Source: an uncultured bacterium (GTDB lineage Bacteria > Hinthialibacterota > Hinthialibacteria > OLB16). From it: DNA of 64,000 nucleotides. This document shows, piece after piece, positions 4,411-49,656 of the stretch. Numbering within the stretch: the stretch's first letter is position 1; every line of letters starts with the position of its first letter. The translations under genes and the position numbers were made by a program. The notes beneath the pieces were generated by a model. It did not search any database. It was not told the DNA's origin and was given only the letters and a program-made list of their open reading frames with translations. Location of the stretch: NCBI GenBank assembly GCA_964481775.1, contig CAYZUX010000001.1, forward strand, positions 16,840-80,839, in the 5' to 3' direction.

Positions 4411-5091
4411 ATGAAATCTTATAAACCAATTCAGTTTTTCAGCAGAGGATTTACTTTGATTGAGCTTCTCATCGTGATTGCAATCATCCTGATCCTGATT
4501 GCAATCGCACTTCCGAATTTTCTTGAAGCCCAGATCCGGGCCAAGGTCGCCAGTGCACGAGGAGGACTTCGTTCTATCCAGACGGGATATGAGGCTTATT
4601 ATGCAGACTATAAGCAATATGTTCCATCTCATCGTTTCAGCTTCCTCAACCGCGCAAGTCCTCCGAACATCGACGGATCAGACATGCGGCTCCTGACTAC
4701 ACCGATTCCATATATTAAAAATGCTTTACCACGCGATCCTTTCACGAATAGAGATCCCTATGCCGGACTCTCGTACAATACAGAGTCCTACTTCACAGCC
4801 TATGGCGCCTGGCGTGGTCCTGATGGGAGTACCAAGTATGCGAATGACGGACCAGGTCCTTTTGGCATGGTTCCCGTTCCTTTTGACAGTTGGATGGGAT
4901 GGAGCTCGGGGCCAGACAATCAGGCACAGACGGGTGGTTACCGTCCGGAACAGATCGTGATGAGAAATGAACAATTGGGATTGAGGAACTATTCTCCTTA
5001 CTACAACGGTGTCCGCTACTCTCCAACCAATGGGACTACAAGTCTCGGCGATATTTATGTATTCGGGCCTGGTGCAATCAGAAAGTATTGA
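4411..5091 (+). CDS. GspG-like pseudopilin / prepilin-type N-terminal cleavage-methylation domain protein (paralogue 1 of 3)
   Basis: AAGGAG RBS 7 nt upstream. The class III leader is MKSYKPIQFFSR|GFTLIELLIVIAIILILIAIALPNFLEAQIRAKV, with G-1/F+1/E+5. The C-terminus (SPTNGTTSLGDIYVFGPG) resembles the GspG calcium-binding loop. Confidence 0.85.
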   Translation: MKSYKPIQFFSRGFTLIELLIVIAIILILIAIALPNFLEAQIRAKVASARGGLRSIQTGYEAYYADYKQYVPSHRFSFLNRASPPNIDGSDMRLLTTPIPYIKNALPRDPFTNRDPYAGLSYNTESYFTAYGAWRGPDGSTKYANDGPGPFGMVPVPFDSWMGWSSGPDNQAQTGGYRPEQIVMRNEQLGLRNYSPYYNGVRYSPTNGTTSLGDIYVFGPGAIRKY

Positions 5092-5140
5092 TTGAGTTGT
5101 TTTTTTTGTTGTATCCACCCAAACAAGGAGGAAAGCCACA

Positions 5141-7951
5141 ATGACGGCAGCAAGTGTGTTTTACCGTTGGGTCGTTCCCGCAGTAATCTCATTTCTCACA
5201 GTTGTTTCCCTCCCAGCCTCTGCTTACACCCTTGAAAGAGTTCCGACAGACCATACTACAATCCAGGCTGCTCTCAACTCGGTTTCTCCTGGTGGTACTG
5301 TGCTCATTGAAAACAGCGCGGTTTATGATGAAGAACTCGTGATTCAGACTGCGAATATCCGCATTGTTGCGGCCTCCGGTGAAACCCCCACGATCCGCTA
5401 TGCGGGTGGCCAGAGCTACATCATTTTTGCTGACAAGCCTTGCAGAATCGGTTCCAACACTGGTGGGCGCATCACCATTGACGGAAACCGTGGTGGCCCG
5501 GGGACCCAGACTCATGTTTTTCGAACGGTTCATACCTCCGGGGAAGTGCGGATCGAGAACATTGACGTCACTAATGTACGCAATAACCAGGTGGTCTATC
5601 CAAGTGGCGGAACAGCAGATATCACACTCAACAATGTACATATCGATGGCGGAGGGATCCTTCAATTTGCCATCCGTGTTGATTTTTTGAACAGTGTACT
5701 GACTCTTAACTGTGTCACACTCACAAATTGTGTCCGTGAGTGTATATTTTCCGCCAATGCCGCAACTGGTGTGATCAATATCAACAATTCGGTCCTCTCC
5801 GCGGGATTCGATGTGGTCTTTTTTGATTTCGCGGCCGGTGGATTCACCCTGAATATCAATGATTCCCTCATCAATGAAACAGGTGGAGGTGGAGGTTTCA
5901 GCGCTTTGTATACCCGTGGTCCCATGACCATAAACATGGCGAATTCCGTGATTCGCACGGGTGACATCGATGGTTTTGGTTTCTACCATTTTGATGACCA
6001 GGCGGGAACGGGACCTGTGAATTTTAATGCTGATCATTGCGATTTTGTCGCTGACTTCCCCTTCCGCCTCCTCTCCAGCACGGCGGCCAATAATTACACC
6101 TTAACAAACTGCAACTTTGTTCATGGTCCCTCGGCTGGACGTGGACAGTTGCTTGGTGGAGCCGGTGGCGGCGATGACACCTTTGTTTGGGATTATAACA
6201 ATGTCCAGAGTAACAGCTATGATGCCTTTCCGGTCGGAGCGAATGATATTCACATCGATCCACTTTATACAAACGTCGCAAGCGGGGATTTTACATACTC
6301 TGATGCGACGGTCCTTGTATCGGATAGTGCCGGAGGACCAATCGGCGCCAACGCGGCCTTTCCTGCTAGTATCTGTGCGGAGGATTTTGTGATCCGTGTG
6401 CCCTCTGATTATCCGAGTATCCAGGCTGCAATTGATGCCTCAGTTCCATATGGCGTGGTTAGGATTGAGGACAGTGGAATTTACGAGGAATGTCTCTTGA
6501 TCAGCATACCGGGACTTACCATTGAGGCTGCTCCCTGCCAAAGCCCGGTGATCCGCTACAACGGTTCGCAGAGTTACCTGGTACGGATCACTGAACCATG
6601 CCAGTTCGGATCGAATTCAGGCGGCCGGATTTTGCTTGACTCGAACCTGGGTGGTCCGGGATCTTTATCACGTGTCCTGGATGCTCTGCATACATGGGGA
6701 ATGGTTGTCTTCGAAAATCTGAGTCTGGACAACATGCGCAACACTTACATGTTCAGACCGACTGCATCAACCAGCGATGTTACAATGAACAACGTGGATG
6801 CGGATGGACATGATCAGGGTCTCGGATTGGCAATAGTTCAATTCCCGATCAGGCTCGATACTCACAACAGTACCTTAACTCTCAACTATTGCAACTTCAG
6901 ACGGATGGCTCGCGATGCGATCTATTCAGCTGGATCAGCTTCCGGAGTGATCAACATCCTCAATTCCGTTGTCGAGGCGGGTTTTGATACCGTCTTCTTT
7001 GACTTTGCAGCCGGAGGATTTACAATCAACATTGATAATTCCTACATAAATGAGACAGGCGGAGGCGGAGCGTTTTCATGTTTTTATGTGCGTGGACCAA
7101 ACACCATCAACATGAAGAATTCCGTACTTCGTACCGCGGATTTTGATGGTTTTGGTTTCTATCATTTCGATGACCAGGCAGGGGCTGGACCTGTGATTGC
7201 GAATTTTGACCATTGTGATTTTGTTGCGGATTTCCCATTCAGATTGCTGAGTAGTTTTTCGGCGAATGTTTATACGGTGACTGAGTGCAATTTCGTTCAC
7301 GGCCCAACTGCATCTGGAAGGGGTCAGCTACTCGGTGGCCCGGCTGGAGGAGATGACACCATCATCTGGGACTACAACAATGTTGTCAGTAATTCCTATG
7401 GTTCCTTCCCGGTTGGTGACCACGACATTCATATTGATCCATCCTACACCTCAGTTACTAGTGGAAATTTCACCTATTCAGAACCAACGGTTTTGGTTTC
7501 GGATTCCTCAGGCGGACCCCTTGGAACCAACACGAACTTCGGACCTTCTGTCCATGTACCGACCCTCTCACTGGATTACACACAGGGTACTGGCTTTGAG
7601 GTGGATGTTCTGGCGCCAGATAACACCCCGGCAGCGCAACCGAAAAGTCAACCTGTCCATGTCTTCTCGCAGAATGTCGGTAATGTGCTTATTTCCACGC
7701 TGAATATAAAGGGAACAAATGCAGCGGATTGGAATATCTTGTGTGATCCACCGATTATTGTGAACAAGTCTTGCCCGGTCTCCATTAAGGTTGAGTTTGA
7801 TCCACAGGAAACCCAACCCACCTACGGCCTTATCGCTTCATTGGAAATAGGCACGAACGATCTTGCCAATGCTGTGGTAACAGTTGCCCTGGAAGGAGAT
7901 GCGGTTGGGGGTGTTCCATCGGCGGTTATCGACTGGAGTATCTACGAATAG
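5141..7951 (+). CDS. Large secreted beta-helix (pectin-lyase-fold) protein with an internal tandem duplication and a C-terminal choice-of-anchor-D/ASH-like beta-sandwich domain
   Basis: GGAGG RBS upstream. Signal peptide MTAASVFYRWVVPAVISFLTVVSLPASA. Two ~385-aa repeats (aa ~29-410 and ~413-800) share long identical blocks (GFGFYHFDDQAG.GPV, HCDFVADFPFRLLSS, GRGQLLGG.AGGDDT). The C-terminal ~130 aa follow the pattern F..NVG.....T..I.N.G...L.I........F...C.....P..SC....F.P.......A.L.I..N.....V.L.G. Confidence 0.85.
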   Translation: MTAASVFYRWVVPAVISFLTVVSLPASAYTLERVPTDHTTIQAALNSVSPGGTVLIENSAVYDEELVIQTANIRIVAASGETPTIRYAGGQSYIIFADKPCRIGSNTGGRITIDGNRGGPGTQTHVFRTVHTSGEVRIENIDVTNVRNNQVVYPSGGTADITLNNVHIDGGGILQFAIRVDFLNSVLTLNCVTLTNCVRECIFSANAATGVININNSVLSAGFDVVFFDFAAGGFTLNINDSLINETGGGGGFSALYTRGPMTINMANSVIRTGDIDGFGFYHFDDQAGTGPVNFNADHCDFVADFPFRLLSSTAANNYTLTNCNFVHGPSAGRGQLLGGAGGGDDTFVWDYNNVQSNSYDAFPVGANDIHIDPLYTNVASGDFTYSDATVLVSDSAGGPIGANAAFPASICAEDFVIRVPSDYPSIQAAIDASVPYGVVRIEDSGIYEECLLISIPGLTIEAAPCQSPVIRYNGSQSYLVRITEPCQFGSNSGGRILLDSNLGGPGSLSRVLDALHTWGMVVFENLSLDNMRNTYMFRPTASTSDVTMNNVDADGHDQGLGLAIVQFPIRLDTHNSTLTLNYCNFRRMARDAIYSAGSASGVINILNSVVEAGFDTVFFDFAAGGFTINIDNSYINETGGGGAFSCFYVRGPNTINMKNSVLRTADFDGFGFYHFDDQAGAGPVIANFDHCDFVADFPFRLLSSFSANVYTVTECNFVHGPTASGRGQLLGGPAGGDDTIIWDYNNVVSNSYGSFPVGDHDIHIDPSYTSVTSGNFTYSEPTVLVSDSSGGPLGTNTNFGPSVHVPTLSLDYTQGTGFEVDVLAPDNTPAAQPKSQPVHVFSQNVGNVLISTLNIKGTNAADWNILCDPPIIVNKSCPVSIKVEFDPQETQPTYGLIASLEIGTNDLANAVVTVALEGDAVGGVPSAVIDWSIYE
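5226..7541 (+). repeat. Intragenic tandem duplication, two units of ~1.15 kb (approx 5226..6366 and 6383..7541)
   Basis: The two units translate to ~40-75% identical protein blocks. The nucleotide copies differ at many third-codon positions, so the duplication is old and not an assembly artefact. Confidence 0.8.
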
Positions 7952-8050: not shown

Positions 8051-8421
8051 GTAAACCTAACCTGTTGCAGATTCTCAAAATGCACAGTGGTTCTGAAACG
8101 AAACCAATTCCCATCTGGTACCTGGGAAGGGGTCCAAATTCCTGGTCGCAAGGTTGCGGATAAGGTAAGTGCAGCAATGGTTGAAAACCTTGAACCCATC
8201 GAGCCATCGTTACTCTGTCAGTCGGTTGAAATGGTGTTCTCACTCGAGAATCCGTTGGGTGAAAAAGGGGATCAGGGGATGATCGAGCAATTGGATACCC
8301 ATAGCGAAAGCATGCCAGAGGTGCAGGTTGCATGGGCGAAAGGTATTGAGGAAAAAATTTCTTCGGCAATTTCCACGCTTATGTTTGAAGGCATTAACTG
8401 ATTTTGATTTGAACAGCCATA

Positions 8422-11400: not shown

Positions 11401-11676
11401 TGGGCCAGGAATGTTACCTCCTTCTGCAAATATCAGGAAAATGGAGAAATTATATTCCAGGTCAATTCAGATAAGCCGGCCAGTATTGCACTCCATTGGA
11501 GGAGTTCTGTTCTCGAAATTGAATCGAATCTCGATGATGAGCTGAACCTTGTCATGAAGCCTGTTGAAAAACCATTGAGTGTGACTCTCAACGGAAGAGA
11601 TCACTCGTTTTATTTTAATTCTGAGCTAAACAGTCTGTCAGTCTATAAAGCAAAAAAGGGGAATCGAAATGACTAA
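8422..11676 (+). CDS. Secreted polysaccharide lyase, heparinase II/III-like (alginate-lyase superfamily), with an N-terminal CBM/CIA30-like module
   Basis: Signal peptide MRLNIIIIAVLAGFLCRPLSV. The N-terminal ~200 aa carry a DDFETGE.. beta-sandwich pattern. The C-terminal half has the heparinase II/III signature: GPHSNHHHLDQGNFLL..GNENLLVEGGYADYY...AVAHNTVLVGNYPESQG. Confidence 0.75.
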   Translation: MRLNIIIIAVLAGFLCRPLSVTPQSLEMISCEIRDDFETGEKSAWETYPFFQDMGFNPTLSCTGEPARHGRFSLSQTFQPTDTDYPTDLNRVGVIKRICITTSDVTNIKFSFFVQSDRRPKCLDVILCSDEGDRFTKSIANPLVNEWIDIEIPLRNFLNGNIALGPNTGIEAIVIVAEFGVVSPDKSYSLNLDSISMIGKRQRRLIPVFPEGTWLEHFQRTVLHRHFHPREEISVSTRAEEMGNNNALKSVHCMVINPDGNIPAREIECFDNGTHGDQSGGDGIWSCHGIYRLGKTDPPGRWQIRLEGRTAEDLIIESTFDFLVPSCTFSPDLHPRLLFTNEDVKKRKDLQQNYQLLKQLYDEAVDKTKKELEGESISYHPEYSGVNSEYLGGGLFSPSWDQFERWINGLNASIPAMDCALLYSLTGDQAMGQRGKEFLLHVCGFRTWNHPWMKSRGIHMYYPVGYTAYRTAVAYDLLYPLMDNEERQLVREALLNKVIIPAYKGEVLDNHIPSNISNHLGVSCTGVLLALIALLGEDPENPYMEPYLSGILSKLEAHIDAAYLPDGSYAEPNSYFHMDAEMTVKAMACLLKNFCIDWTGKKGIGDAWQYSIYTSTPSGEECLDMGDGYDFWKDNGIKPLIWASCQMNNGIAWDRYLWTRGPDINKRLVADFFDYLWAPLDLEAVPVNHLPPSKWFWAKGFACFRGGWGSDDLLLLFKAGPHSNHHHLDQGNFLLRYGNENLLVEGGYADYYTNGYYHSFYEQAVAHNTVLVGNYPESQGVSDLRNQVKALDRYPQILDCFTGCIVDALESELSSVYKGRMNKFRRSIIFLKPDYLVLFDNITANQPESIQWLFHAANKDYIHAGSKTCLIRQPRASLRMEILEPVGCKASVKDHPDSEKGILWLSTTESVESTKFLSALIPSKEKNSKEHDKWVVSKVNCSGWSGIRVQRGDLLDEVYFREECNQGEMLPNYKTDSDRYVITVNPQGTMTRFWARNVTSFCKYQENGEIIFQVNSDKPASIALHWRSSVLEIESNLDDELNLVMKPVEKPLSVTLNGRDHSFYFNSELNSLSVYKAKKGNRND

Positions 11677-13474
11677 GCCTCGTTTTTTCCTTAATACTGG
11701 AAGGGTCCGGAACATCACGGGGGTGATAGGATTTATTTGCAATCGGCCCTTACTGGTTTTCCAAATTATGCTCTGCGTGGTCGTACCAGGTGGTGCCTTC
11801 GAGACACCAGACTCAATGGGACAAAATACGGATTTACCAACTGGAATGATCGCCCATTGGGACTTTGATAGAGACTATAATGATTCATCGGGAAACAACC
11901 TCCATGCAATACCCCATGGAACAGAGATTGAAAATACCACCCCGCCTGGAACTGAGGGTGCATCTGTAGTTTTTGACGGGCGTATGGCATGGTTAGAGGT
12001 ACAGGATCACCCATTGTTGAACATGGGGACTGATGACTTCAGTATTGTGGGTTGGTACTTTGTCTCAAAACAGGGGAATGACTTGCCAGGTGATCTCATC
12101 AGCAAATATGATCCTGAGACCAGGACCGGTTTTCAGATAGGTATCCAACACTCACCGGGGATTACCACCTCTCAATCCAACACACGTAACCTGTTCTTTG
12201 GAATCAACTCGGGGAAGCCTGACCAAGGGTGGAAGGATTGTGGACGGCCAGGAAAAAATCTCCTCGTCTATGCGTTGTGTGTTTGGGAAGGAAATCTCTA
12301 TGCGGGAACATATGAGGAAGGAGAGAATGAAGCTGGAAGTGTCTACCGGTATGCCGACGATGGAAATTGGGTATTCTGTGGAAGTCCGGATATCTGCAAT
12401 TCTGTCACCTCTCTTTGTGTGTTCAACGGGGACCTTTATGCCGCTGTATCTGACTATGATGCATCTGGGTCAAAACTTGACAGGTCTCCTAACAGAAATC
12501 CTGGGGGAAAAGTTTACCGATATAAGGGTGGAACCGAGTGGATTGACTGTGGACGATTAGGAGATGCCCCCTATATTTTTGGGATGGTCGAATTTGAGGG
12601 GAGTCTCTATGCCACCCTCCTGCGTGCCCCCAATCCAACGGGGGAAATGAAGGACCTTGGGCTTTATCGTTACGAGGGTGAACAGAAGTGGATCTATTGT
12701 GGACATCCAGGTGGAAGGGTGTGCGCTCTCACACCGTTCAATGGCCATCTCTATGCGACTGGTTATGATGGGGGAAATCTGGGTGGCGTTTTCCGCTACG
12801 AGGGGGACCAGAGGTGGACGAATTGTGGTGTTCCGGGCAGGACTACACAAACTTATTCCTTTGCCTTTCTGGCTGGAAGAATGTATGTGGGGACATGGCC
12901 AGAGGGAAAGGTCTATCGGTATGAGCAGGATGGTGAATGGACTGATTGCGGACAGCTCGGTGAGGAACAGGAGGTCATGGGGATGTCCTTGTACAACGGT
13001 CATCTATATGCGGGAACCCTTCCACTGGCACAGGTATACCGATATATGGGAGGGACAACATGGGATCTGAGTGCGCGCCTTGATCTTACACCGGAGGTGA
13101 TGTACCGCCGGGCCTGGTCAATGGCTGTCTTTCAAGGGGAGCTCTTTTGTGGTGTCCTGCCGTCTGGCCATGTGCATTCGCTGGAATCCGGTAAAATGGT
13201 TACATACGATCGGGATCTTGGAACAGGTTGGAGACACATAGCCGCCATCAGAGAAGGAACACGACTCTCCCTCTTTGTGGATGGCAAAAGGGCTGTTGAG
13301 TCTACTTCCTTTCATCCATTGGATTTCGATTTGAGTAATAGGCAACCTCTGAAAATTGGTTTTGGCCGCAATGAATATTTTAATGGAAATATCGCCGATC
13401 TTCAGATCTATCGACACGCTCTTTGCGAAAAGGAGGTTGATGCCCTTTATCATCAAAAACCTGGAAGGCAATGA
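11669..13474 (+). CDS. LamG-like (concanavalin-A-like) jelly-roll protein with an inserted ~8-bladed repeat (putative beta-propeller) domain
   Basis: 8-nt overlap with the upstream gene, consistent with translational coupling. The N-terminal LamG half is HWDFDRDYNDSSGNNLHAIPHGTE...VVFDGRMAWLEVQDHP...DDFSIVGWYFVSK. The C-terminal LamG half is WRHIAAIREGTRLSLFVDGKRA...KIGFGRNEYFNGNIADLQIYRHALCEKEV. Between them lie >=7 repeats of ~45 aa of the form G.VYRY..g..W..CG.pG.......f.G.LYA. Confidence 0.7.
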   Translation: MTKPRFFLNTGRVRNITGVIGFICNRPLLVFQIMLCVVVPGGAFETPDSMGQNTDLPTGMIAHWDFDRDYNDSSGNNLHAIPHGTEIENTTPPGTEGASVVFDGRMAWLEVQDHPLLNMGTDDFSIVGWYFVSKQGNDLPGDLISKYDPETRTGFQIGIQHSPGITTSQSNTRNLFFGINSGKPDQGWKDCGRPGKNLLVYALCVWEGNLYAGTYEEGENEAGSVYRYADDGNWVFCGSPDICNSVTSLCVFNGDLYAAVSDYDASGSKLDRSPNRNPGGKVYRYKGGTEWIDCGRLGDAPYIFGMVEFEGSLYATLLRAPNPTGEMKDLGLYRYEGEQKWIYCGHPGGRVCALTPFNGHLYATGYDGGNLGGVFRYEGDQRWTNCGVPGRTTQTYSFAFLAGRMYVGTWPEGKVYRYEQDGEWTDCGQLGEEQEVMGMSLYNGHLYAGTLPLAQVYRYMGGTTWDLSARLDLTPEVMYRRAWSMAVFQGELFCGVLPSGHVHSLESGKMVTYDRDLGTGWRHIAAIREGTRLSLFVDGKRAVESTSFHPLDFDLSNRQPLKIGFGRNEYFNGNIADLQIYRHALCEKEVDALYHQKPGRQ

Positions 13475-20289: not shown

Positions 20290-21570
20290 ATGAAAGCCGG
20301 AGTGGGTAAAGTACTCATAACACCTGAAACGAGTATGTGGCTGGCTGGATACGCACACCGTGATCGTCCCTCCCAGGGAGTACTATGTGAGCTTTATGCA
20401 AAGGCTTTATCATTCGAGGATGAAGCTGGTTCACAGTTTGTCCTTGTAACAACAGACATTCTGGGATTCACAAGGAATGTGGCCGCACAGATCGCTGACA
20501 GGGTAAAGGAAGAATGTGGCATTCCCCGGGAACAGTTGATGTTGACCTCCTCCCATACTCACAGCGGGCCAGTGATAGGGGATTGCCTGATCGATATGTA
20601 TCATCTGAATCCTGAACAAATGGACTTGGTTAAGAAATACACTGTTGCCCTGGTAGATCATGTCCTTCAGGCGGTGAAACAGGCAATCAGGAATCTTGAA
20701 CCTTGTTCATTATCCTGGTCAGTTGGCAATGCGGCGTTTGCCCACAATCGGCGGGAGTATACGGAGGAGGGGGTTATCATCGGTTGTAACCCCGAGGGCC
20801 CGACAGACCATGACGTCCCAGTTCTGCGTGTAAATCGCAAAGATGGTTCTGTCAAAGCAGTTCTGTTTGGTTATGCCTGTCATAATACTGTCCTGGATCT
20901 TTGCGAGTTCAGCGGCGATTATGCCGGTTATGCACAGTTGACTTTGGAAGACAGTATCCCAGGAATGGTGAGTCTTTTCGTCAGCGGATGTGGTGGCGAT
21001 CAGAATCCATTGCCACGCAGAAGCATAGAATTGGCCAGGAAGCATGGACAGGACCTTGCCACCTCAGTGCTTGAGACATTCCATAGACAAGCCGCTGATG
21101 TTCATGGCCCCATCCATGCCGTATTTGAGGAAGTTCCTCTCAAATTCCGGTATCAGGATTATCGCAAAGAACTGGACGACCAGATTAAAGGAGGGAATGA
21201 ATACCTCCGCAACACAGCCGCACGTTTACTCGCACGGCTCAGAGACAATGGGGAGCAACCAGCATTCTATCCCTACCCCGTTCAGATCTGGTGTTTCTCG
21301 AACACACTCCAGCTAATCGCCTTGGGTGGGGAGGTGGTGGTTGACTATTCGCTTCGATTGAAACAGGAACTTGGACGGGAAAGGAATTTTATTTTGGCAT
21401 ACGCCAATGATGTGATGGGATATATTCCAAGCCTTCGGGTTTTGAACGAAGGTGGCTACGAAGCGGACTTCTCGATGGTTTATTATGGATTTTCCGGAAC
21501 TTGGGATGATCAGATTGAAACAACAATTATCGAAGCGGTTCACCGCTTGACAAATGAAGCCAAGGTTTGA
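20290..21570 (+). CDS. Neutral/alkaline ceramidase N-terminal-domain-like hydrolase
   Basis: N-terminal pattern MKAGVGKVLITPETSMWLAGYA.R.....GV.CELYAKAL.FED..G...VLVTTD..G..........LMLTSSHTHSGP matches the ceramidase N-terminal domain signature. Confidence 0.55.
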   Translation: MKAGVGKVLITPETSMWLAGYAHRDRPSQGVLCELYAKALSFEDEAGSQFVLVTTDILGFTRNVAAQIADRVKEECGIPREQLMLTSSHTHSGPVIGDCLIDMYHLNPEQMDLVKKYTVALVDHVLQAVKQAIRNLEPCSLSWSVGNAAFAHNRREYTEEGVIIGCNPEGPTDHDVPVLRVNRKDGSVKAVLFGYACHNTVLDLCEFSGDYAGYAQLTLEDSIPGMVSLFVSGCGGDQNPLPRRSIELARKHGQDLATSVLETFHRQAADVHGPIHAVFEEVPLKFRYQDYRKELDDQIKGGNEYLRNTAARLLARLRDNGEQPAFYPYPVQIWCFSNTLQLIALGGEVVVDYSLRLKQELGRERNFILAYANDVMGYIPSLRVLNEGGYEADFSMVYYGFSGTWDDQIETTIIEAVHRLTNEAKV

Positions 21571-22345: not shown

Positions 22346-22369
22346 ATGCAATTCCCATGGAAGGAGAGA

Positions 22370-23764
22370 ATGATGAAAAGACTTTCTGTAACATGCTTAA
22401 TCGTGATTTTCCTGGTTCCACTTTGGGTGTCACCTGCTTTCTCGTTTTGGGATGAGCAACAGCTCACCTTTGATACGAATAGAAATCACTCTCTTGACAA
22501 CAACCTCAACTGGTCTCCTGACTGCAAATGGATTGCTTATGACACAAGGGCTTTGTCAGGTGGAATTGGTAATACGTTGACACTTGAGAAGGTGAACATC
22601 GAAACAAAAAGTATCGTCGTCATGTACACTGCCCCGAATGCACTTCCTCTTGATGGATTTGGCCCGGGCACTGCGGCGGTGAGTTTTTTTCCTGCCGGGG
22701 ACAGAGTTATTGCCATTCGTGGGATCAACGGTGTGCAATACGCGGGTACAGCACGTTTCGGGGCGATGATCAGCCCTACCGATGGAAGTGTGGGAAGTGA
22801 GGGTTATGTCATAGCCGATGCCCGGGATGTAACGCCACCATTCACACCCGGCGCATTGCGTGGGGGGACACATCGGCACGAACCAACTGGGGATGGGGTA
22901 TTGGTGGGCTTCACCTACAATGACCAGATCATGAAAGATCTTGGGAAAGACCTCAGAACCATCGGTGTCACCAAACTGGGTACGCCGGTGGACGTAGATG
23001 AGGCACTTGGAAATCTGGATGGCACAGGTTTCACAGTGCTGGTTGTAAAAGTAAAGCCCCAATCGGAGATCACACCAGGTAGTGATGACATCTTCCAGGG
23101 TTCTGATGATGCCTGGGTTGGTGAAAAGGGCTATCAGAAACCGGACCAGACCTGGCAACGTGCGCGTGCTTTCATCGGCAAGACTGTCACAAGTACTGGC
23201 GGGGTTCGCAACGAGGTGTATATTGTTGATATCCCTGAAGACATCACAGTGGCCGGACCCGATGGGCCGCTTGAGGGAACTGAAACAACCTTCCCGATGC
23301 CTCCCGCGGGGACGGTTCAACGCAGGCTGACCAATAGTGAGTCAGACTGTGGTGGAATCATCCGCTGTAGTCTGGATGGCTCCAGGATCGCCTTCACTAG
23401 AGGTGGTCAGATCTGGCTGATTTCACCACTTGGTGGTACCGCTGTTCAGGCTACCTCAATTCCCACAGGAGTCTCCAAACCCTGGTGGGATCCAAGTGGC
23501 GACTACATATATTGCATCTCAGACAACTCGATTTGGGTGACCAATGTCAGGGAGGGTGATTCCAATTTTGGTGAATCCGAGAGAATCACCGATCCAAATT
23601 TATTCCCCGGTCGTGCACCGGATGCATTGTGTGTCTCGCCCGATGGCAAATGGATTGCTTTCAACCGGAAGCTTGATGGTGATGGAGGAACACAAATCAA
23701 TCAAATCTTTGTGGTGTCGATCCCGGCACCATCAAGGGTCGACAACTGGAGTCTTTTTGAGTAA
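22370..23764 (+). CDS. Secreted TolB-like (PD40 repeat) beta-propeller protein, DUF3748-like
   Basis: AAGGAGAG RBS, then MMKRLSVTCLIVIFLVPLWVSPAFS as a signal peptide. TolB-like blades are recognisable: NWSPDCKWIAYDTR, CSLDGSRIAFTRGGQIWL and VSPDGKWIAFNRK. Confidence 0.65.
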   Translation: MMKRLSVTCLIVIFLVPLWVSPAFSFWDEQQLTFDTNRNHSLDNNLNWSPDCKWIAYDTRALSGGIGNTLTLEKVNIETKSIVVMYTAPNALPLDGFGPGTAAVSFFPAGDRVIAIRGINGVQYAGTARFGAMISPTDGSVGSEGYVIADARDVTPPFTPGALRGGTHRHEPTGDGVLVGFTYNDQIMKDLGKDLRTIGVTKLGTPVDVDEALGNLDGTGFTVLVVKVKPQSEITPGSDDIFQGSDDAWVGEKGYQKPDQTWQRARAFIGKTVTSTGGVRNEVYIVDIPEDITVAGPDGPLEGTETTFPMPPAGTVQRRLTNSESDCGGIIRCSLDGSRIAFTRGGQIWLISPLGGTAVQATSIPTGVSKPWWDPSGDYIYCISDNSIWVTNVREGDSNFGESERITDPNLFPGRAPDALCVSPDGKWIAFNRKLDGDGGTQINQIFVVSIPAPSRVDNWSLFE

Positions 23765-23990: not shown

Positions 23991-25979
23991 TCACGGCTTT
24001 TCTCTTTCCTCAGGAAAGTCCAACCCCTGTGTCAGCCATGACAATGAAAAACGCACAAAACGAATCCATTCACGGCGGTGCTTTTCACCCCCTTCAAAGA
24101 GCAGACCGATATCACCATCAGGCAAACGGACCATGGATGAATACGATGAAGGGCCATGATGGATGAGCCTCTTGACAGGCCATGTCTGACCTTCATCATA
24201 ACTCACCCTGACTGTCATCCGGGTCCGCTCCACTACGTTGAATTTTTCACCGGAATTGTCTGGATTTGAGAACAGGATACGCCCTTTCTCATCCGGGCCG
24301 GGAAGGCTGTACCTCGCAAGACTTGCCTGGCAGGGACATTCATTCAGCGTGCGGTCCCAGCGAAAGTTGGACCAAGTCCGTCCACCATCCTCGCTGATGG
24401 CGACCCCCCGGCAACTCATCCCCATGTCGCCGCGCATGTTGAGCATCAGTTTCCCATCTGCCAGTTCAACTGCCTGACATTCATCAGACAGAACAGATAC
24501 CGCATCTCCCAATGTCCAGGTCTTGCCATGATCATCGCTGTAAAGAACTCGCGAATGGAATTCTTCCTCGCATTCTTCGTTGGGCTCTCCTGTATAACCC
24601 GGGATGACTAACCTTCCGTTTTTCATCTGAAGTCCCACACCTGGGCCGGGATTGAAGGTATCGTCATAATTGGTGATGAACGGACCGATGTCCACCGGCT
24701 CGGACCAGGTCTGTCCGTTATCCCGGCTGATCAGCTGGAAATGCTGGTGATGGTTTGTGCTGACTTTATTGGCATTGTCGCATATCAGGATGATCGTGTT
24801 GTTGATGTAGTCAATCACCGGGCATGGATTCATGAGTGCCTCGATTCCCTGACCCTGGACAAGAGTCTGCATGGGCAACCAGGTGCGTCCACCATCCAGG
24901 CTTCGCCTGAGGACCATATCAGATGGACTCATATCCTCCTGTGAAATTTTACGGGCTTCACAGAAAGCCAGGAGAGAACCATCTGGCGCGATGAGCAGCC
25001 CGGGGATCCGGTATGTATGAACTCCCTCTGCCCCGGCGGTGAACACATTCACGAATTCCGGAGTACCGGGTTGTGGCTTCGGAAGTTTTGCCAGCACCAC
25101 ACGGAATCCGATGTCGCTCTTGATGATCGATGGAGTCTCATGATGACGTCGTGAGGACCGGCAATGGCCACCAATACAAAGCCAACTGCCTCCCCGCAGC
25201 ACACGGTGTTCGGCGGTTGCGGGTCCCACGGGATCAACCGCAATTCCGTCATAATAATAGCCATGCCAGTCCTGGCACCATTCTGAGACATTACCGCTCA
25301 TATCGTACAATCCCCAGGGATTTGGAGGTAACATTCCTACTGGATGGGCGTATTTTTCCATCGTGATCAGTGTGTTTCCCAGCCACCACGCCTTCTGGTT
25401 AATTTCGTCGTAGGCTGGATCATCTCCCCAATAAAATCTTGTCGTGGTTCCCGCACGGCAGGCATACTCCCACTCCGCCTCGGTTGGGAGACGGAAATCC
25501 CTTCCTGTGATTGTTGCCAGCCTGGTTGTGAAGGTATGAGCATCTTCCCAGCTGATGTAAACTGCTGGGCTGCGTGGATTTTCACTGACATATCTGTGTC
25601 CTTTCCACGGCTCATTCCCCATGACAGCCTGCCACTGCTCCTTGGTCACCTCGTACTTTCCGATCCAGAACCCGTTGGACAGTGTCACTGGGTGTGCCGG
25701 TGTTTCTTTGTTGGGATAGGCATCCTGTTCCTTTTTCCTTTGACCCATCATGAATGAACCACCGGGAATCCAGACCAGATCGAGTTGAACTTCCCCAGGA
25801 AGAATGATGGTTTCGTTTGCTTTACTCTGGAATCCCAGGTTCGCTTCTGTTGCATTTCCATCAGCAAATGCGGCCAGGGAAATTTCAAACAAGAGAGTAA
25901 CCATGACCTTGATTATTGTGCTGGCCACACATTCTGTTTTTCGAGGTATCATGTTTGTCTTCATTCCCATTTCACTCAC
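23991..25979 (-). CDS. Secreted fusion protein: N-terminal FGE-sulfatase (SUMF1-like) domain plus C-terminal GH33 exo-alpha-sialidase (BNR repeats)
   Basis: FGE-domain motifs: WIPGGSFMMG, VSWEDA, RLPTEAEWEYACRAGT and RVLRGGSWL. Sialidase motifs: YRIPGLLIAPDGSLLAF (RIP/arginine triad) and the Asp-boxes SLDGGRTW, SRDNGQTW, SDDHGKTW, SEDGGRTW and SYDEGQTW. Confidence 0.85.
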   Translation of the reverse strand: MSEMGMKTNMIPRKTECVASTIIKVMVTLLFEISLAAFADGNATEANLGFQSKANETIILPGEVQLDLVWIPGGSFMMGQRKKEQDAYPNKETPAHPVTLSNGFWIGKYEVTKEQWQAVMGNEPWKGHRYVSENPRSPAVYISWEDAHTFTTRLATITGRDFRLPTEAEWEYACRAGTTTRFYWGDDPAYDEINQKAWWLGNTLITMEKYAHPVGMLPPNPWGLYDMSGNVSEWCQDWHGYYYDGIAVDPVGPATAEHRVLRGGSWLCIGGHCRSSRRHHETPSIIKSDIGFRVVLAKLPKPQPGTPEFVNVFTAGAEGVHTYRIPGLLIAPDGSLLAFCEARKISQEDMSPSDMVLRRSLDGGRTWLPMQTLVQGQGIEALMNPCPVIDYINNTIILICDNANKVSTNHHQHFQLISRDNGQTWSEPVDIGPFITNYDDTFNPGPGVGLQMKNGRLVIPGYTGEPNEECEEEFHSRVLYSDDHGKTWTLGDAVSVLSDECQAVELADGKLMLNMRGDMGMSCRGVAISEDGGRTWSNFRWDRTLNECPCQASLARYSLPGPDEKGRILFSNPDNSGEKFNVVERTRMTVRVSYDEGQTWPVKRLIHHGPSSYSSMVRLPDGDIGLLFEGGEKHRREWIRFVRFSLSWLTQGLDFPEEREKP

Positions 25980-26420: not shown

Positions 26421-29183
26421 ATGTGGTGCATTCCATTATTATTGGCTGGTGTGGTGACAAGTACGACCATTGAGGTGGACAATGTCTTTCCCGGGAAGTC
26501 ATGGGAACAACGCAGTCCTGAATCACTGGGTATGAACGCAAACCTGCTTGATCAGCTGGCTGAACACCTGGGTGGAAGAGGCTGTGTCATCAAAAACGGC
26601 TATATCGTGAAGACATGGGGAGATCAAACCCAGATTGGTGACTGGGCTTCTTCGGCGAAACCTGTCTTAAGCACGCTCCTCTTCTTTGCTCTTCAGGAGG
26701 GTTTAATTAAGAGTGTAGACCAACCTATTGCAGATTTCGGTTGGAAACTCCAAAAGAAAGACCAGGGAATCACCTTTCGTCATCTTGGAAGTATGAGTAG
26801 TGGCTATGCCCGGCCTGAAGGACCTGGGGAGGCATGGGCATACAACGATTACGCGATTCAACTTTACCAGATGACTCTTTTTGATAAGGTCTTCAAAGAG
26901 GATGCAAGGAATGTGGCAGAGCACTCCAATCGATTGGGTGTGCTCAAATTCCAGGATGGCTTGACCTTCAGTAAAAAACGCCGCCTGTCCACATCGGTGC
27001 GAGATTTCTCACGTATCGTTTGGCTGTGGCTGAACAAGGGACGCTGGGGTGACAAGCAGCTCCTGCCTGCTGAATATTTCAACGAGTATATGAAACCACA
27101 AACACCCAAGGACCTGCCCCAGACCCGGAAAGCTGATACGGAAGATTACCTCGAAATCGGTTCATACGGCGGCGATTCTGACCATTTCAGTGATGATGGA
27201 CCTGGCACGTATGGTTTTAACTGGTGGTTTAATGACACAGGACGAACTCATCCCGACCGCCTCACCTGGCCCAGCGCCCCCCCTGATACGATCATGTCGA
27301 TAGGAGCAAGAGGAAATAGCAGCGCATTTATTCCGAGTATGAATGCGGCTCTGATTTGTGCGGATGGAAGCTGGAATAATGAAAACACAGATGAAACTCT
27401 CCGGTTATTTTCTTTAGCCTGCCGATCAGATCAACCTAAAGTGCAAATTAAGGGCGATCGAGTAAAATGGCAGCCGATCAAATTGCTTTTTGAAGGACCA
27501 ATGACCGCAGAGAGGGCTGAACCAAACCCCTTCATGAACTATCGATTGACGGTACGATTCACCCGGGATGGCCGTACTGTCGATGTTCCCGGGTATTACG
27601 CCGCGGATGGTAATGCGGCAGAAACGGGGGCGAATAGCGGCTCAATATGGAGTGTTAATTTCACCCCCGATGAAGAGGGGATTTGGAACTACGAAACAGA
27701 ATTCGTAACCGGCATGAAGATAGCCATTTCAGAAAAGACAACCACCGGTGTACCAGTAAGTTTTGATGGAGCTTCGGGATGCTTTGAGGTAAAACCAATC
27801 GATTCCAGTGCTCCCGGTTTTTACTCTAAGGGTATGTTGCGTGCGCAGGGTCATCGCTATCTCCAGTTCGCTGAGACTGGTGAGTATTTCCTAAAAGGTG
27901 GCACGGACAGCCCGGAAAACCTGTTGGCCTATTCTGATTTTGATGGAACCAAGCCCACTCACAAATATGGACCTCACGCGGCTGATTGGCGTCAGGGTGA
28001 TCCTCAATGGCAAAATGGCAAAGGTAAGAATCTGGTTGGCGCTCTTAATTATCTGGCGTCAAAAGGCATGAATTCGGTCTATTTCCTGACCATGAATGTG
28101 GGTGGTGATGGAAAGGATGTGTGGCCATGGATTGATACTGACGAAAAGGGCCGTTTTGATTGCAGTAAACTGGACCAGTGGGATATCATCTTTACACATA
28201 TGGATAAGCTGGGACTGCTAATGCATGTCGTGACTCAGGAACAGGAAAACGACCAACTACTAGATGATGGAAACCTTGGCGATGAAAGGAAACTATACTA
28301 CCGCGAGCTTGTTGCAAGATTTGCTCATCACCCGGCTGTTGTCTGGAATCTTGGGGAAGAGAATACCAATACAGACGAACAGCGTAAATCCTTTGCAGCC
28401 TATATCCGTATGTTGGATCCCTATCGTCATCCAATCGTGGTCCATACATTTCCTAGTCAATATAACAAGGTCTATGATCCTCTCCTTGGTTTCCCTCATT
28501 TCGATGGACCATCACTGCAGATGGGAGATATGAGGAAAACCCACGAGGAGACCCTCAAGTGGGTGATTCTCTCCGGGAAAGCCGGAAAGCAGTGGTTTGT
28601 CTGCCAGGATGAAATTGGGCCACCCAGTGTTGGAGTAAAGCCTGACAATGAGGATCCGGACCATTCTGATGTGTTGCGTCATGCGTTGTGGGGTAACCTG
28701 ATGGCGGGTGGTGCCGGGGCGGAATGGTTTTTCCAGAGCGATCTCCATACTGAAGACTGGAGAACAAGGGACAGGCTCTGGGAGAAGACCTTTTTCGCTC
28801 TCAACTTCTTCCAAAAACATCTCCCCTTTGCAGAGATGCAACCCCGTGACGACCTGGTGGCGGGAGAGGGTTCCTGGTGTTTGGCAAACGCTGGCGAGAT
28901 TTATGCAATCTACACCTCTTCTCCGGATAATTGCCAAATGCTGCTGGGTGAAGGGAATTACCGTGTTGACTGGTACAACCCAGTGAATGGTGGAGACCTG
29001 ATTCCAGGTGGTTCAATTGTGGGTGGAGGAGAACGCACATTTGGTCATCCGCCACATAATAGGTCTGAAACTTGGGTGATCCTGTTGCGGAAATTACGAG
29101 CTGGACAAATGGAAAACGAAAAGGGTATTGTTGATCTTTCTACCGAATACCCTGACCTGAATGTACATCCTGAAAAGCCTTGA
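26421..29183 (+). CDS. Secreted multidomain protein: beta-lactamase-fold serine-hydrolase domain plus GH140-like module (DUF5060, DUF4038 TIM-barrel, collagen-binding-like beta-sandwich)
   Basis: The N-terminal ~320 aa carry an S-x-x-K motif (WASSAKPVL) within a beta-lactamase-like context. Then comes a DUF5060-like segment (KWQPIKLLFEGP..NPFMNYRLTVRF..WSVNFTPDEEGIWNYE). Next is a clan GH-A TIM-barrel with an NE motif (VVWNLGEENT). The C-terminus has YRVDWYNPVNGG. Confidence 0.65.
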   Translation: MWCIPLLLAGVVTSTTIEVDNVFPGKSWEQRSPESLGMNANLLDQLAEHLGGRGCVIKNGYIVKTWGDQTQIGDWASSAKPVLSTLLFFALQEGLIKSVDQPIADFGWKLQKKDQGITFRHLGSMSSGYARPEGPGEAWAYNDYAIQLYQMTLFDKVFKEDARNVAEHSNRLGVLKFQDGLTFSKKRRLSTSVRDFSRIVWLWLNKGRWGDKQLLPAEYFNEYMKPQTPKDLPQTRKADTEDYLEIGSYGGDSDHFSDDGPGTYGFNWWFNDTGRTHPDRLTWPSAPPDTIMSIGARGNSSAFIPSMNAALICADGSWNNENTDETLRLFSLACRSDQPKVQIKGDRVKWQPIKLLFEGPMTAERAEPNPFMNYRLTVRFTRDGRTVDVPGYYAADGNAAETGANSGSIWSVNFTPDEEGIWNYETEFVTGMKIAISEKTTTGVPVSFDGASGCFEVKPIDSSAPGFYSKGMLRAQGHRYLQFAETGEYFLKGGTDSPENLLAYSDFDGTKPTHKYGPHAADWRQGDPQWQNGKGKNLVGALNYLASKGMNSVYFLTMNVGGDGKDVWPWIDTDEKGRFDCSKLDQWDIIFTHMDKLGLLMHVVTQEQENDQLLDDGNLGDERKLYYRELVARFAHHPAVVWNLGEENTNTDEQRKSFAAYIRMLDPYRHPIVVHTFPSQYNKVYDPLLGFPHFDGPSLQMGDMRKTHEETLKWVILSGKAGKQWFVCQDEIGPPSVGVKPDNEDPDHSDVLRHALWGNLMAGGAGAEWFFQSDLHTEDWRTRDRLWEKTFFALNFFQKHLPFAEMQPRDDLVAGEGSWCLANAGEIYAIYTSSPDNCQMLLGEGNYRVDWYNPVNGGDLIPGGSIVGGGERTFGHPPHNRSETWVILLRKLRAGQMENEKGIVDLSTEYPDLNVHPEKP

Positions 29184-29422: not shown

Positions 29423-31861
29423 CTATCGATAATAAGAGCAAGTTGTGATGGCGGATTTTATTTCTTGACGATATTGGTCGCCAATCTCTTCGGCTGATAA
29501 GTCTCTCGCGAAAAACTTGAACTCGTCCATCTGTCCGGAAAAGTATTGGCTTTTCAGAAAGTGAGGATTATAGCCGATACTGATTTCCTTGGCATTTGTT
29601 TCCAAAAGGGGATGAATTGAGATTTGTTCAATTGCCGAACCGTTCAGGTATAGTTTGAATGAATTATTATCCTTGACTACAGAAATATGATACCAGCAAC
29701 TGTTTTTCAGTTCATAACCTGATGTCAAGCAGGTTGTGTCTTGAATAATGCCAGCGTAGAGAATATTCCCGGTGATGAAAATTGTCAGAGGATCGTCATT
29801 CAGAGCACTGCGCGCTGAGACGATCGGCAAGCGGAAACCATCGGAAACAACCTCAGGATCCATTTCCTTAAGGCGAATCCATACGATAAATGTATAGTTT
29901 TCAATCGGGAAGTATGGAAGTCCATAACGAAGCCGGGAGGATTGACCATCAAATAGGATCGCACTGTCTTCGTTTCCGTTCCGATCGACCGCGGGTAAAG
30001 TTCCTGACTCTTCGAGAAGTTGACCTGTCTCAGGTGTTCCATCTCCATCAAGTGGTGATGCCAGAGCTAGTGCTTCTTCTCCCAACGACTTAATCCAAAG
30101 TTGACGGCGTGCACTGTTGATTTCCTGAAAGAAGGGAAGGGTGGATCCCATCTGGTCCATGGCAATAAGTGAGTCCCCTTTCCACATCATGTCTATTTTC
30201 CGGCCATTGAGGATTTCGCTTGTTTCGTATACCGGGAGAGGAAATCCGATCGAAATCACCTTGTTCAAGGGAGGATTCGATACCTTAAGATAATAGTCCA
30301 ATAGGGTCGTTGAGAGTAGGACGCCTTCGGAATGGACAGTGATTGTGTCACGATCTACCCAATCTGAAAGGCGTACATATAAATGACCAGGGGATTTGAC
30401 AACAATATTGAAATTATTTCCGTTTGGATATGGCGAGGTTACGGCTATGTCGTCATTCTCGAAACCGAAAAGAAGGTTCACATAATGATCTCCATTGATC
30501 CTCCTACAGCAATTCAATTTTATTTCCGCAACCTGAGCGATTCCTCCTGCCACGATGTCGAAAAAGAAGGCTCCATTGAAATAAGGATTCCTGGTTGCAA
30601 GATGCCCGTAGGGAGCGGGGAAACCATAGGCTCCCTTGCTGCGTCCCTTGACATTATAATAAGCATCGGGAGTTGGCGGATTTACATTATCGGGAACAAA
30701 ACTGTTATCAAGGAGCTGGGTTGGCAGGAGGTGGGCTCGCGTATATCGTTCAGCATCCTGATAGTATTGGGGAAATCCCCAATCTCCAAGGTGGAGTGCG
30801 GTGTGAATGATTTCACAGGTGTTATTGATTTCTCCGACATCGCTATTCATGCTTAAACGTTCTGGGTACCACCCTGTCTGGCTTGAATGTTCCTTCAGCC
30901 CATTATCGTAGAAGGCGCGGACACGTTCTTTCATAATGGGATCGTTTGTCACGGTTGCAACCTGTGCCAAAGCGCTCATCCTGCCGACGATCTCAAATCC
31001 ATGGTCTCCTCCTGAAATACTTCCATCGGCAGGGAAATCATAGGCCATGTGAATCCCTCCAAAGATTGAGGAAATTTCATAGGCCAGAGAGGAACCGGTC
31101 ACTTGCTGGTAACGGGATATTGACCAGGTTGCGAAAGGAAAGGAACGGACATTGGATGAACTTGGGCCAGGCCATGCAGGAGAACCTCCTGTGCCTCCAC
31201 CGATTAATCCGAATTTCTGTTGGAAAGCAAGCCAACTGAACCCGGGATTTACAAAATAGGAATTATAATTCGACAGAGATTCATTAAAGTACTCGATTGC
31301 TGTCGAATCATTCCGAAACTGAACAAGGCCCAGTAACCCTCGCATCCCTGCGCCATTATTGAAGATCCAACAGGTGTTGAAGGGCCCACCAATCGTGGAG
31401 GGATCCGCGGGGATTCCACGCACGAGGTTATATGAATCAAGTAAAACAGTTCGGTATTTTTCAAAGACAACGGGATCAAGAGGTTGTCCAAGTGCCTTTT
31501 CAGCCATGAGGAGAGCATATAAGGCTCTGCCTGTTACATTTCCTACGCTCAATTGGGAATGGAACTTCATTTGTGGCCGGGAAAGGACCCAGCATTCGAA
31601 GTAAGGTATGTTCCGATCCTGGGGATTCAAGATGTTCGACATACAGTGTATTCCCCATTTGAGCGCCAGATCCAGGTCCGTAGTATTAACTTCCAGTGGT
31701 TCGCTTCCTAATGATCCAGTTGACGGGAAAGACAATACCAGAAGAAAACATCCGTATAAAAGAACTGCATTCAAAAGCTGCTGACTGGTTTTGGGATAAT
31801 GGCCTGCAGGTGCTGTGAAAGCCGTTACAAGTGATATTCTTTTCATCGTTCTCCTGCTCAT
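29423..31861 (-). CDS. Secreted member of an uncharacterised putative glycoside-hydrolase family (paralogue a) with a C-terminal LamG domain
   Basis: Signal peptide present. Family blocks shared with the 543-aa and 630-aa paralogues: WGIHCMSNILNPQDRNIPYFECWVL, DVGEINNTCEIIHTALHLGDWGFPQYYQDAERYTRAHLLPTQLLDNSFVP and KGAYGFPAPYGHLA. The C-terminal ~170 aa form a LamG (DSAILFDGQSSRL...FSGQMDEFKFFARDLSAEEI). Confidence 0.6.
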   Translation of the reverse strand: MSRRTMKRISLVTAFTAPAGHYPKTSQQLLNAVLLYGCFLLVLSFPSTGSLGSEPLEVNTTDLDLALKWGIHCMSNILNPQDRNIPYFECWVLSRPQMKFHSQLSVGNVTGRALYALLMAEKALGQPLDPVVFEKYRTVLLDSYNLVRGIPADPSTIGGPFNTCWIFNNGAGMRGLLGLVQFRNDSTAIEYFNESLSNYNSYFVNPGFSWLAFQQKFGLIGGGTGGSPAWPGPSSSNVRSFPFATWSISRYQQVTGSSLAYEISSIFGGIHMAYDFPADGSISGGDHGFEIVGRMSALAQVATVTNDPIMKERVRAFYDNGLKEHSSQTGWYPERLSMNSDVGEINNTCEIIHTALHLGDWGFPQYYQDAERYTRAHLLPTQLLDNSFVPDNVNPPTPDAYYNVKGRSKGAYGFPAPYGHLATRNPYFNGAFFFDIVAGGIAQVAEIKLNCCRRINGDHYVNLLFGFENDDIAVTSPYPNGNNFNIVVKSPGHLYVRLSDWVDRDTITVHSEGVLLSTTLLDYYLKVSNPPLNKVISIGFPLPVYETSEILNGRKIDMMWKGDSLIAMDQMGSTLPFFQEINSARRQLWIKSLGEEALALASPLDGDGTPETGQLLEESGTLPAVDRNGNEDSAILFDGQSSRLRYGLPYFPIENYTFIVWIRLKEMDPEVVSDGFRLPIVSARSALNDDPLTIFITGNILYAGIIQDTTCLTSGYELKNSCWYHISVVKDNNSFKLYLNGSAIEQISIHPLLETNAKEISIGYNPHFLKSQYFSGQMDEFKFFARDLSAEEIGDQYRQEIKSAITTCSYYR

Positions 31862-49596: not shown

Positions 49597-49656
49597 GATT
49601 AATCCTCCATTCGACCATTTTACTATCCATCTGCTCATTTCCATGAGTCATCTCAG

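Follow-up and report, generated by a model that had tools for sequence, protein, structure and literature searches.

Two questions are raised by a gene on a stretch of 64,000 nucleotides (nt) of DNA from an uncultured bacterium of the Hinthialibacterota (contig CAYZUX010000001.1, positions 16,840 to 80,839; this whole stretch is called the window below): how a LamG domain that appears in two separate pieces of the gene product is to be understood, and what a protein built in this way might do. The initial annotation had proposed a LamG jelly-roll interrupted by inserted tandem repeats, that is, a domain insertion rather than a simple fusion. According to our analysis of sequence profiles and predicted structures, the protein very probably consists of a single Laminin_G_3-type jelly-roll with a complete seven-bladed propeller in its beta9-beta10 hairpin. 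The proposed insertion was supported by a Pfam match restored by splicing, by a profile of spliced family members, by the model of the spliced protein, and by relatives that carry nested and uninterrupted LamG domains in one chain. The coordinates of all features are collected in Table 1.

In the native protein, Pfam Laminin_G_3 (PF13385) was found only at amino acids (aa) 519-590, corresponding to positions 79-150 of the 151 profile positions (43.2 bits, cutoff 27.6). A Pfam scan of the N-terminal LamG part alone gave no significant match and a weak one to another ConA-like family. The same half-domain pattern of Laminin_G_3 was common to every homolog checked. Taken by themselves, these results would fit a protein with no true insertion, in which the propeller lies between two LamG remnants, partial or degenerate, as a consequence of fusion or decay, or an artefact of the gene model or the assembly. 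We are aware of the fact that the presence of one LamG domain was tested indirectly, by in silico splice comparisons. Deletion of aa 186-505 in silico widened the Laminin_G_3 match to profile positions 8-150 (51.3 bits). A profile of 24 spliced family members spanned the splice point from end to end, covering residues 36-221 of 4qvs (1.1e-11) as well as the uninterrupted LamG domains of pappalysin-2 (1.4e-9) and PMP1 Hc (2.6e-8), while the profile of the intact family, used as control, reached only the C-terminal part (4qvs residues 123-221, 3.2e-7).

The full-length protein was modelled confidently by AlphaFold2 from an alignment of 116 sequences (mean predicted local distance difference test score, pLDDT, 91.4; predicted template modelling score, pTM, 0.89), with a pLDDT above 90 almost throughout the two LamG parts and the propeller. 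Nine strands were located at aa 60-181 and 28 at aa 189-505, followed at aa 509-595 by six strands and one helix. When the spliced query was modelled on an alignment of intact homologs, it folded as one domain (pLDDT 92.5, pTM 0.90), the strands of which matched those of the full-length model strand for strand; this result supports the assembly of both halves into one sandwich. Over its whole length the spliced model was superimposed on solved jelly-rolls with template modelling scores normalised to the query (TMq) of 0.76 (6hox) and 0.72-0.75 (clostridial toxin HCN domains), and on the carbohydrate-binding domain 4 of the arabinanase AbnA (5hon) with a TMq of 0.69 and a score normalised to the target (TMt) of 0.75. 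In two relatives, P0177 and P0194, a nested and an uninterrupted LamG domain occur in one chain, with the sub-profiles of the N-terminal and C-terminal halves matching in order. The insertion point was mapped to the beta9-beta10 hairpin between aa 184 and aa 507, approximately, at about Pfam position 78. Both LamG halves of the initial annotation were therefore retained, with shifted boundaries: the N-terminal part ends near aa 184 instead of 170, and the C-terminal part begins near aa 507 instead of 520. The notion of two unconnected remnants runs contrary to the spliced Pfam match, the AlphaFold2 model, the spliced profile and the spliced model alike. Moreover, hundreds of full-length homologs, assembled independently, show the half-match pattern, a protein of 100% identity was found on 4 independent public metagenome contigs, and the repeats have diverged at the DNA level, so that remnants or an artefact are effectively excluded. 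Within the LamG parts the aspartates D72, D138, D142, D148, D180 and D514 are conserved, which is compatible with a Ca2+ or carbohydrate site at the rim and proves nothing.

For the region between the LamG parts, at least seven tandem repeats of about 45 residues had been predicted. Their presence was borne out, as the LYA-type, VYRY-type and W..CG-type strand motifs were each found in seven copies, and a combined VYRY..G.W..CG regular expression gave 5 matches compared to 0 in 2000 shuffled sequences; the count was refined to exactly seven blades of 41-57 aa. Each blade proceeds from a hydrophobic strand via a G.LYA(G) strand and a (V)YRY strand to a W..CG strand. The first of the seven W..CG-type strands stands ahead of blade 1. 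This strand would complete blade 7 by a "velcro" closure, presumably through pairing with the strand at aa 502-505, and would bring the ends of the insert side by side. Through such a closure both propeller ends would exit at the same spot, leaving the sandwich still able to close. Repeat similarity at the DNA level was limited to short traces of 60-80% identity, and for this reason the repeats are regarded as ancient and not as an amplification or assembly artefact. In fold comparisons with the PDB the insert matched seven-bladed propellers, with the highest score for the lyase Vgb (TMt 0.75), followed by RACK1-type and LGI1-EPTP propellers (0.59-0.68). The family profile matched the solved Kelch propellers of KLHL20, Keap1, SAKe and Scone with values from 1e-10 to 1e-5. 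Pfam Kelch_1-6 gave no match at E<=1 for either the query or the isolated insert, and in the homolog P0111 Kelch matches were found below the Pfam threshold only. The GloVer repeat (TIGR03803, NCBIfam) reached 26.5 bits for a single blade at a cutoff of 44.

How does this arrangement relate to known systems? The joined flanks match the Laminin_G_3/ConA jelly-rolls (AbnA 5hon, the S-layer-domain protein 4qvs, pappalysin LamG, clostridial-toxin HCN) in whole profile and fold, and carry the FDG...W...G...lyvDG...F.G.iddvriY signature. These relatives are uninterrupted, whereas the query holds about 320 residues in the beta9-beta10 hairpin, and due to this insert only the C-terminal half of the LamG domain shows up in standard domain searches. 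With the Kelch propellers (Keap1, KLHL20, the designed SAKe and Scone) the insert shares four-stranded blades of about 45 aa and a tryptophan-containing strand. It differs from the six-bladed BTB-Kelch proteins by its seven blades, by a Cys-Gly conserved after the Trp and by scores below the Pfam Kelch thresholds; it is, in addition, bacterial, nested in another domain and found in a context of glycan metabolism instead of ubiquitin adaptors. Sialidases and trans-sialidases, which are among the top PDB matches by E-value, likewise combine a beta-propeller and a ConA/LamG-like sandwich in one glycan-active chain. However, their domains are consecutive, their propeller is six-bladed and catalytic, and the superposition was poor (root mean square deviation 22-25 A, TMq about 0.25). 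The textbook nested architecture is the integrin alpha I-domain, where a seven-bladed propeller is the host and a vWA domain the guest. The polarity is reversed in the query, with the propeller as guest and LamG as host. In the umbrella toxins of Streptomyces (UmbA), seven-bladed propellers and the Laminin_G_3 family are glycopolymer-recognising lectin modules, found alongside GDSL and GDPD domains (PMC13274773). There, the lectin modules are separate, alternative C-terminal domains without nesting, and the likeness is one of description and not of sequence comparison. In the literature and the solved structures searched, no description of the nested LamG-propeller arrangement was found. Hence, two familiar folds are combined in a recurrent nested arrangement that is undescribed in the searched sources, in a large uncharacterised family.

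A word-index protein search yielded 2194 significant matches, the top 120 of which shared about 47-72% identity with the query over 82-98% of its length. Scanning species-representative genomes, at least 588 loci were found. All genome-locus counts given here and below refer to the best 80 of these at least 588 loci (L004-L083). All 80 encode full-length proteins, sometimes with two copies per genome, and at about 50% identity they are distributed over Planctomycetota, Chloroflexota, Verrucomicrobiota, Hydrogenedentota, Latescibacterota, Armatimonadota, Acidobacteriota, Gemmatimonadota and others. A search with the propeller only against 1.8 billion cluster representatives identified 1034 clusters at E<=1e-3, of which 164 reached E<=1e-30. 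In most of them the propeller occupies about aa 130-470 of a protein of 530-600 aa, which is the same nested design. Most family members are stand-alone proteins, and their public names are limited to "LamG domain-containing protein" or "hypothetical". The other open reading frame of 601 aa in the window (47839..49644, minus strand) was considered as a paralog and ruled out by comparison. An N-terminus resembling a signal peptide was detected in the query, and 78 of 116 homologs have a similar one. In the query, aa 1-45 are the sole disordered part of the full-length model (pLDDT below 50) and form a probable Sec signal peptide or anchor. The distribution follows the phylum, with signal peptides present in Planctomycetota (30/31), Verrucomicrobiota (5/6) and Armatimonadota (3/3) and mostly absent from Chloroflexota (0/17), Latescibacterota (0/3), Acidobacteriota (0/3), Gemmatimonadota (0/2) and Hydrogenedentota (1/5). 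Despite this dependence on the phylum, the identity across phyla stays at about 50%.

Where could the function of the protein reside? In the 116 sequences, 19 polar propeller residues were conserved to at least 90%; they are blade-specific and lie outside the repeated blade motif. Fifteen of these 19 are located in loops, 14 of the 15 in the D-A or B-C loops forming one face and one on the other face. The invariant residues Q394, Y396, E435, R480 and R481 are found at the starts or entrances of inner strands, on the same side as the D-A and B-C loops. The near-invariant set includes R193, E216, D241, N244, N275, R350, Q394, Y396, E433, E435, D472, R480 and R481, and the propeller contains no conserved His. 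Judged by propeller topology, the LamG domain would be joined via strands 7C and 7D, on the side opposite to the conserved face. As the residues differ from blade to blade, they point to a single central pocket rather than to multivalent lectin sites between blades, and the 19 residues probably mark a single functional site. The enzyme-fused members P0121, P0129, P0125, P0131 and P0133 retain all of them or differ at no more than one position each; in divergent tandem-module proteins and in P0222 the set is lost. Based on this retention and loss, we consider the pocket a signature of the main family, and the nested architecture to be broader.

The contexts of the nested module were mapped by sub-profiles and Pfam scans. 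The module was found downstream of GDSL and CE15-like (glucuronoyl-esterase-like) domains (P0121, P0129), downstream of DUF4838/GH67N/GH20b-like domains (P0222), behind other N-terminal regions (P0125, P0131, P0133), upstream of a GH20b-like domain (P0267) or of GDPD domains (P0060, P0076, P0123), with a sulfatase fragment (P0070), and with sorting tails of the type IX secretion system or immunoglobulin-like domains (P0234, P0247). P0184 contains two nested modules in tandem, the first of which, when spliced, matched Laminin_G_3 positions 1-149 with 94.1 bits. Besides its uninterrupted LamG domain, P0177 apparently contains two nested modules, the N-terminal half of the first being undetected by the sub-profile; P0194 contains one and has a pilin-like N-terminus. 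These three are large proteins of a very regular VYRYDGGTTWTSVG repeat without the pocket of the main family. Regions of the DUF2341 type occur in P0194 and P0146. In the latter (2446 aa), about 1,700 residues of blades lie between the LamG parts at about aa 330-392 and 2092-2200, amounting to several propellers' worth of the same blade repeat around a non-repeat middle at about aa 1040-1330. Splicing its flanks produced a full Laminin_G_3 match (positions 1-151) of 65.5 bits; scored separately, the two parts gave 16.5 and 50.1 bits. The varied contexts, the tandem copies and P0146 indicate that the nested LamG-propeller is a mobile evolutionary unit with variable insert size.

We propose that the protein may act as a glycan-recognition component of polysaccharide catabolism. 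We assign this reading a probability of roughly 0.45 and take binding to be the minimal function; close behind it in probability stands a catalytic role of this pocket. The working site would be one asymmetric pocket in the centre of the propeller face pointing away from LamG. The ligand would probably be an anionic (uronate or sulfated) sugar, possibly metal-bound, because the pocket is rich in Arg and acidic residues and because a uronate/sulfate theme recurs in the heparinase-like lyase encoded upstream, the CE15-like esterases and the sulfatases. In the bacterium studied, export of the protein and its production together with this heparinase II/III-like lyase are probable, and it would hold or present the substrate or products of the lyase. 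A role in glycan binding is supported by the module being appended to carbohydrate-active domains, namely by the fusions to GDSL and CE15-like, DUF4838/GH67N/GH20b-like, GDPD and sulfatase domains, and by the resemblance of the spliced LamG domain to the carbohydrate-binding domain of AbnA. The T9SS-type tails, the sulfatases and sugar-related genes near family members, the glycan-degradation genes of the window, the lectin modules of the umbrella toxins and the hydrophobic N-terminus of the query and of most homologs agree with such a role.

Several observations weigh against this proposal. For the propeller, no relative with known sugar specificity was found in Pfam, NCBIfam or the PDB, and the nearest sequence relatives, the Kelch propellers, bind proteins and not sugars. 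At 33 of the 80 loci the protein lacks any signal peptide, which weighs against a pure surface lectin, and a cytoplasmic non-catalytic lectin would be unusual. A carbohydrate-binding module of 540 aa would be unusually large as well, and the identity of about 50% across phyla together with the invariant constellation of 19 residues looks more enzyme-like than that of a typical carbohydrate-binding module. The assignment of the conserved face rests on strand order and not on measured coordinates. Finally, the link to the lyase says little about the function of the family, because it is specific to one lineage (see below).

Much of the same evidence can be read as that of an enzyme, which we consider somewhat less probable than glycan recognition. 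The propeller pocket would then be catalytic, forming an undescribed carbohydrate-active family of lyases, hydrolases or esterases, and LamG would be its built-in binding or scaffold domain; the enzyme would act on oligosaccharides that contain uronate or are sulfated, such as those released by the neighbouring lyase. The near-invariant polar set of Tyr, Arg, Glu, Asp, Gln and Asn, gathered on one face and asymmetric between blades, argues for catalysis, and so does the sequence identity of about 50% across at least eight phyla. Signal-less and presumably cytoplasmic forms in about five phyla, beside genes for sugar oxidation and transport, the mostly stand-alone members and the paralogs within one genome point in the same direction. 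The best-superimposing PDB structure, Vgb, is itself a seven-bladed lyase. Seven-bladed propeller polysaccharide lyases do exist in the CAZy families PL22, PL24, PL25 and PL42. However, only generic propeller similarity was observed: apart from generic propellers, neither the sequence matches in Pfam, NCBIfam and the PDB nor the top 50 PDB fold matches contained a catalytic propeller family, including these four. The lack of a conserved His in the propeller, the position of the module in multi-domain enzymes, which is the usual one of a carbohydrate-binding module, and the fact that both parent folds are classically binding modules also speak against catalysis. With a similar degree of doubt, the main family might represent a new carbohydrate-active enzyme family with a catalytic propeller within the LamG binding domain, acting on uronate-containing or sulfated oligosaccharides; in the Planctomycetes-Verrucomicrobia-Chlamydiae group its place would be the periplasm, in Chloroflexota, Acidobacteriota and others the cytoplasm.

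The gene upstream had been labelled a heparinase-like lyase. On the basis of its sequence matches this label is correct at the superfamily level only, because the protein falls well short of the cutoffs that NCBIfam sets for specific heparinases (HepB). Translational coupling of the two genes, as initially suggested, is plausible in view of their 8-nt overlap. However, at the 72%-identical sister locus L004 the genes are separated by 42 nt without overlap, and the lyase is absent at the other family loci. A co-occurrence with the lyase as a trait of the family was therefore rejected: the lyase adjoins only on the contigs of the window itself and at L004, and its partnership is lineage-specific. 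The gene pair, overlapping here and kept at L004, would also fit a protein-protein adaptor, in which LamG anchors a complex that the Kelch-like propeller forms with the lyase or with another protein, comparable to the eukaryotic Kelch substrate adaptors. The nearest solved sequence relatives, being protein-binding Kelch propellers, agree with such a role. Nevertheless, we consider an adaptor improbable, since the pocket is invariant throughout the family although the lyase is missing from 79 of the 80 loci, and since the fusion partners are diverse enzymes instead of one fixed partner.

A survey of the neighbours at the 80 loci revealed no dominant conserved partner. Sulfatases (8 loci), Amidohydro_2, GFO/IDH/MocA and sugar-binding proteins and short-chain dehydrogenases/reductases were recurrent, and distantly similar ceramidase_alk-like proteins were encoded at most three genes from family members at 6 of the 80 unrelated loci. 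Judged by sequence motifs, some recurrent neighbours in Chloroflexota look like housekeeping genes (QueF-like, YhhQ-like). The window itself is a glycan-degradation neighbourhood, with the lyase, an FGE-sulfatase/BNR fusion, an apiosidase-like/DUF5060 protein, a second LamG protein and an IclR regulator. The DUF5060 and DUF3748/PD40 proteins are further genes of the glycan-degradation type near the gene under study. Comparing the window with L004, the flanking genes for the N_methyl and the 936-aa protein were 85-91% identical, while the lyase (63%) and the LamG-propeller protein (72%) have diverged much faster. The 936-aa protein had no Pfam match and shows clear internal duplications. An Rfam scan of the window gave no match and hence no RNA marker for taxonomy; the prepilin-type N_methyl protein gives no more than a hint of an organism of the Planctomycetes-Verrucomicrobia-Chlamydiae type.

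Table 1. Features of the nested LamG-propeller gene and of its surroundings (positions in the window; residue numbers refer to the 601-aa protein unless stated otherwise).
Feature	Position	Strand	Basis or remarks
Nested LamG-propeller gene	11669..13474	+	complete, 601 aa; list of open reading frames
N-terminal aa 1-45, basic stretch and hydrophobic segment (about aa 28-40)	11669..11803	+	hydrophobic 11-mer score 2.96
LamG/ConA-like jelly-roll, N-terminal part, aa 58-184, nine strands (beta1-beta9)	11840..12220	+	DSSP of the model; Laminin_G_3 positions 8-78 after removal of the insert
Inserted seven-bladed Kelch-like beta-propeller, aa 186-506	12224..13186	+	28 strands in 7 groups of 4 (model)
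First strand of the insert, aa 186-195, QGWKDCGRPG, W..CG-type outer strand	12224..12253	+	DSSP strand 189-190
Blades 1-7	aa 196-241, 242-298, 299-347, 348-390, 391-431, 432-476, 477-505		blade alignment
LamG/ConA-like jelly-roll, C-terminal part, aa 507-598, beta10-beta15 and helix 587-595	13187..13462	+	Pfam, DSSP
Upstream gene, exported heparinase II/III-like polysaccharide lyase, 1084 aa	8422..11676	+	Hepar_II_III_C 2.5e-16, DUF4962 weak (Pfam)
Overlap ATGACTAA of lyase stop codon and LamG-propeller start codon	11669..11676	+	8 nt; read from the sequence
Shine-Dalgarno-like AAGGGG	11656..11661	+	within the lyase coding sequence, 7 nt 5' of the ATG; putative function
Prepilin-type N_methyl protein (226 aa), followed by 936-aa protein	4411..7951	+	counterpart at L004 1491..5008
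104-aa open reading frame between the 936-aa gene and the lyase	8087..8401	+	gene call on public contigs; 56% identity over 84 aa at L004; no family assignment
Ceramidase_alk-like protein	20290..21570	+	PF04734, 1.3e-19
472-aa DUF3748/PD40 propeller protein	22346..23764	+	
661-aa fusion of FGE-sulfatase (sulfatase-modifying-factor-like) and BNR/sialidase-like propeller	23991..25979	-	
920-aa DUF5060 protein	26421..29183	+	weak, sub-threshold apiosidase-like and beta-lactamase-like regions
811-aa protein with uninterrupted Laminin_G_3, aa 648-792 of that protein	29423..31861	-	profile positions 12-150; second, conventional LamG protein

For the annotation of such proteins the consequences are direct. 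In the proteins of hundreds of species, Pfam misses about 320 residues, the whole propeller, and shows the LamG domain as a half. Once the nested module is recognised, the domain model is put right for at least about 1,000 sequence clusters of one family. With regard to protein architecture, the module is a clean and recurrent case of a propeller as guest in a beta-sandwich hairpin, which duplicates as a unit, can expand to about 1,700 inserted residues, and lends itself to design and to work on how domains are inserted. Domain insertions are common in general; this one is a worthwhile target on account of the family size, the invariance of the pocket and an insert that can expand. With regard to glycobiology, the strictly conserved pocket and the links to lyase, esterase, sulfatase and glycosidase-like proteins in phyla that degrade polysaccharides make the family a candidate for a new activity in glycan binding or cleavage.

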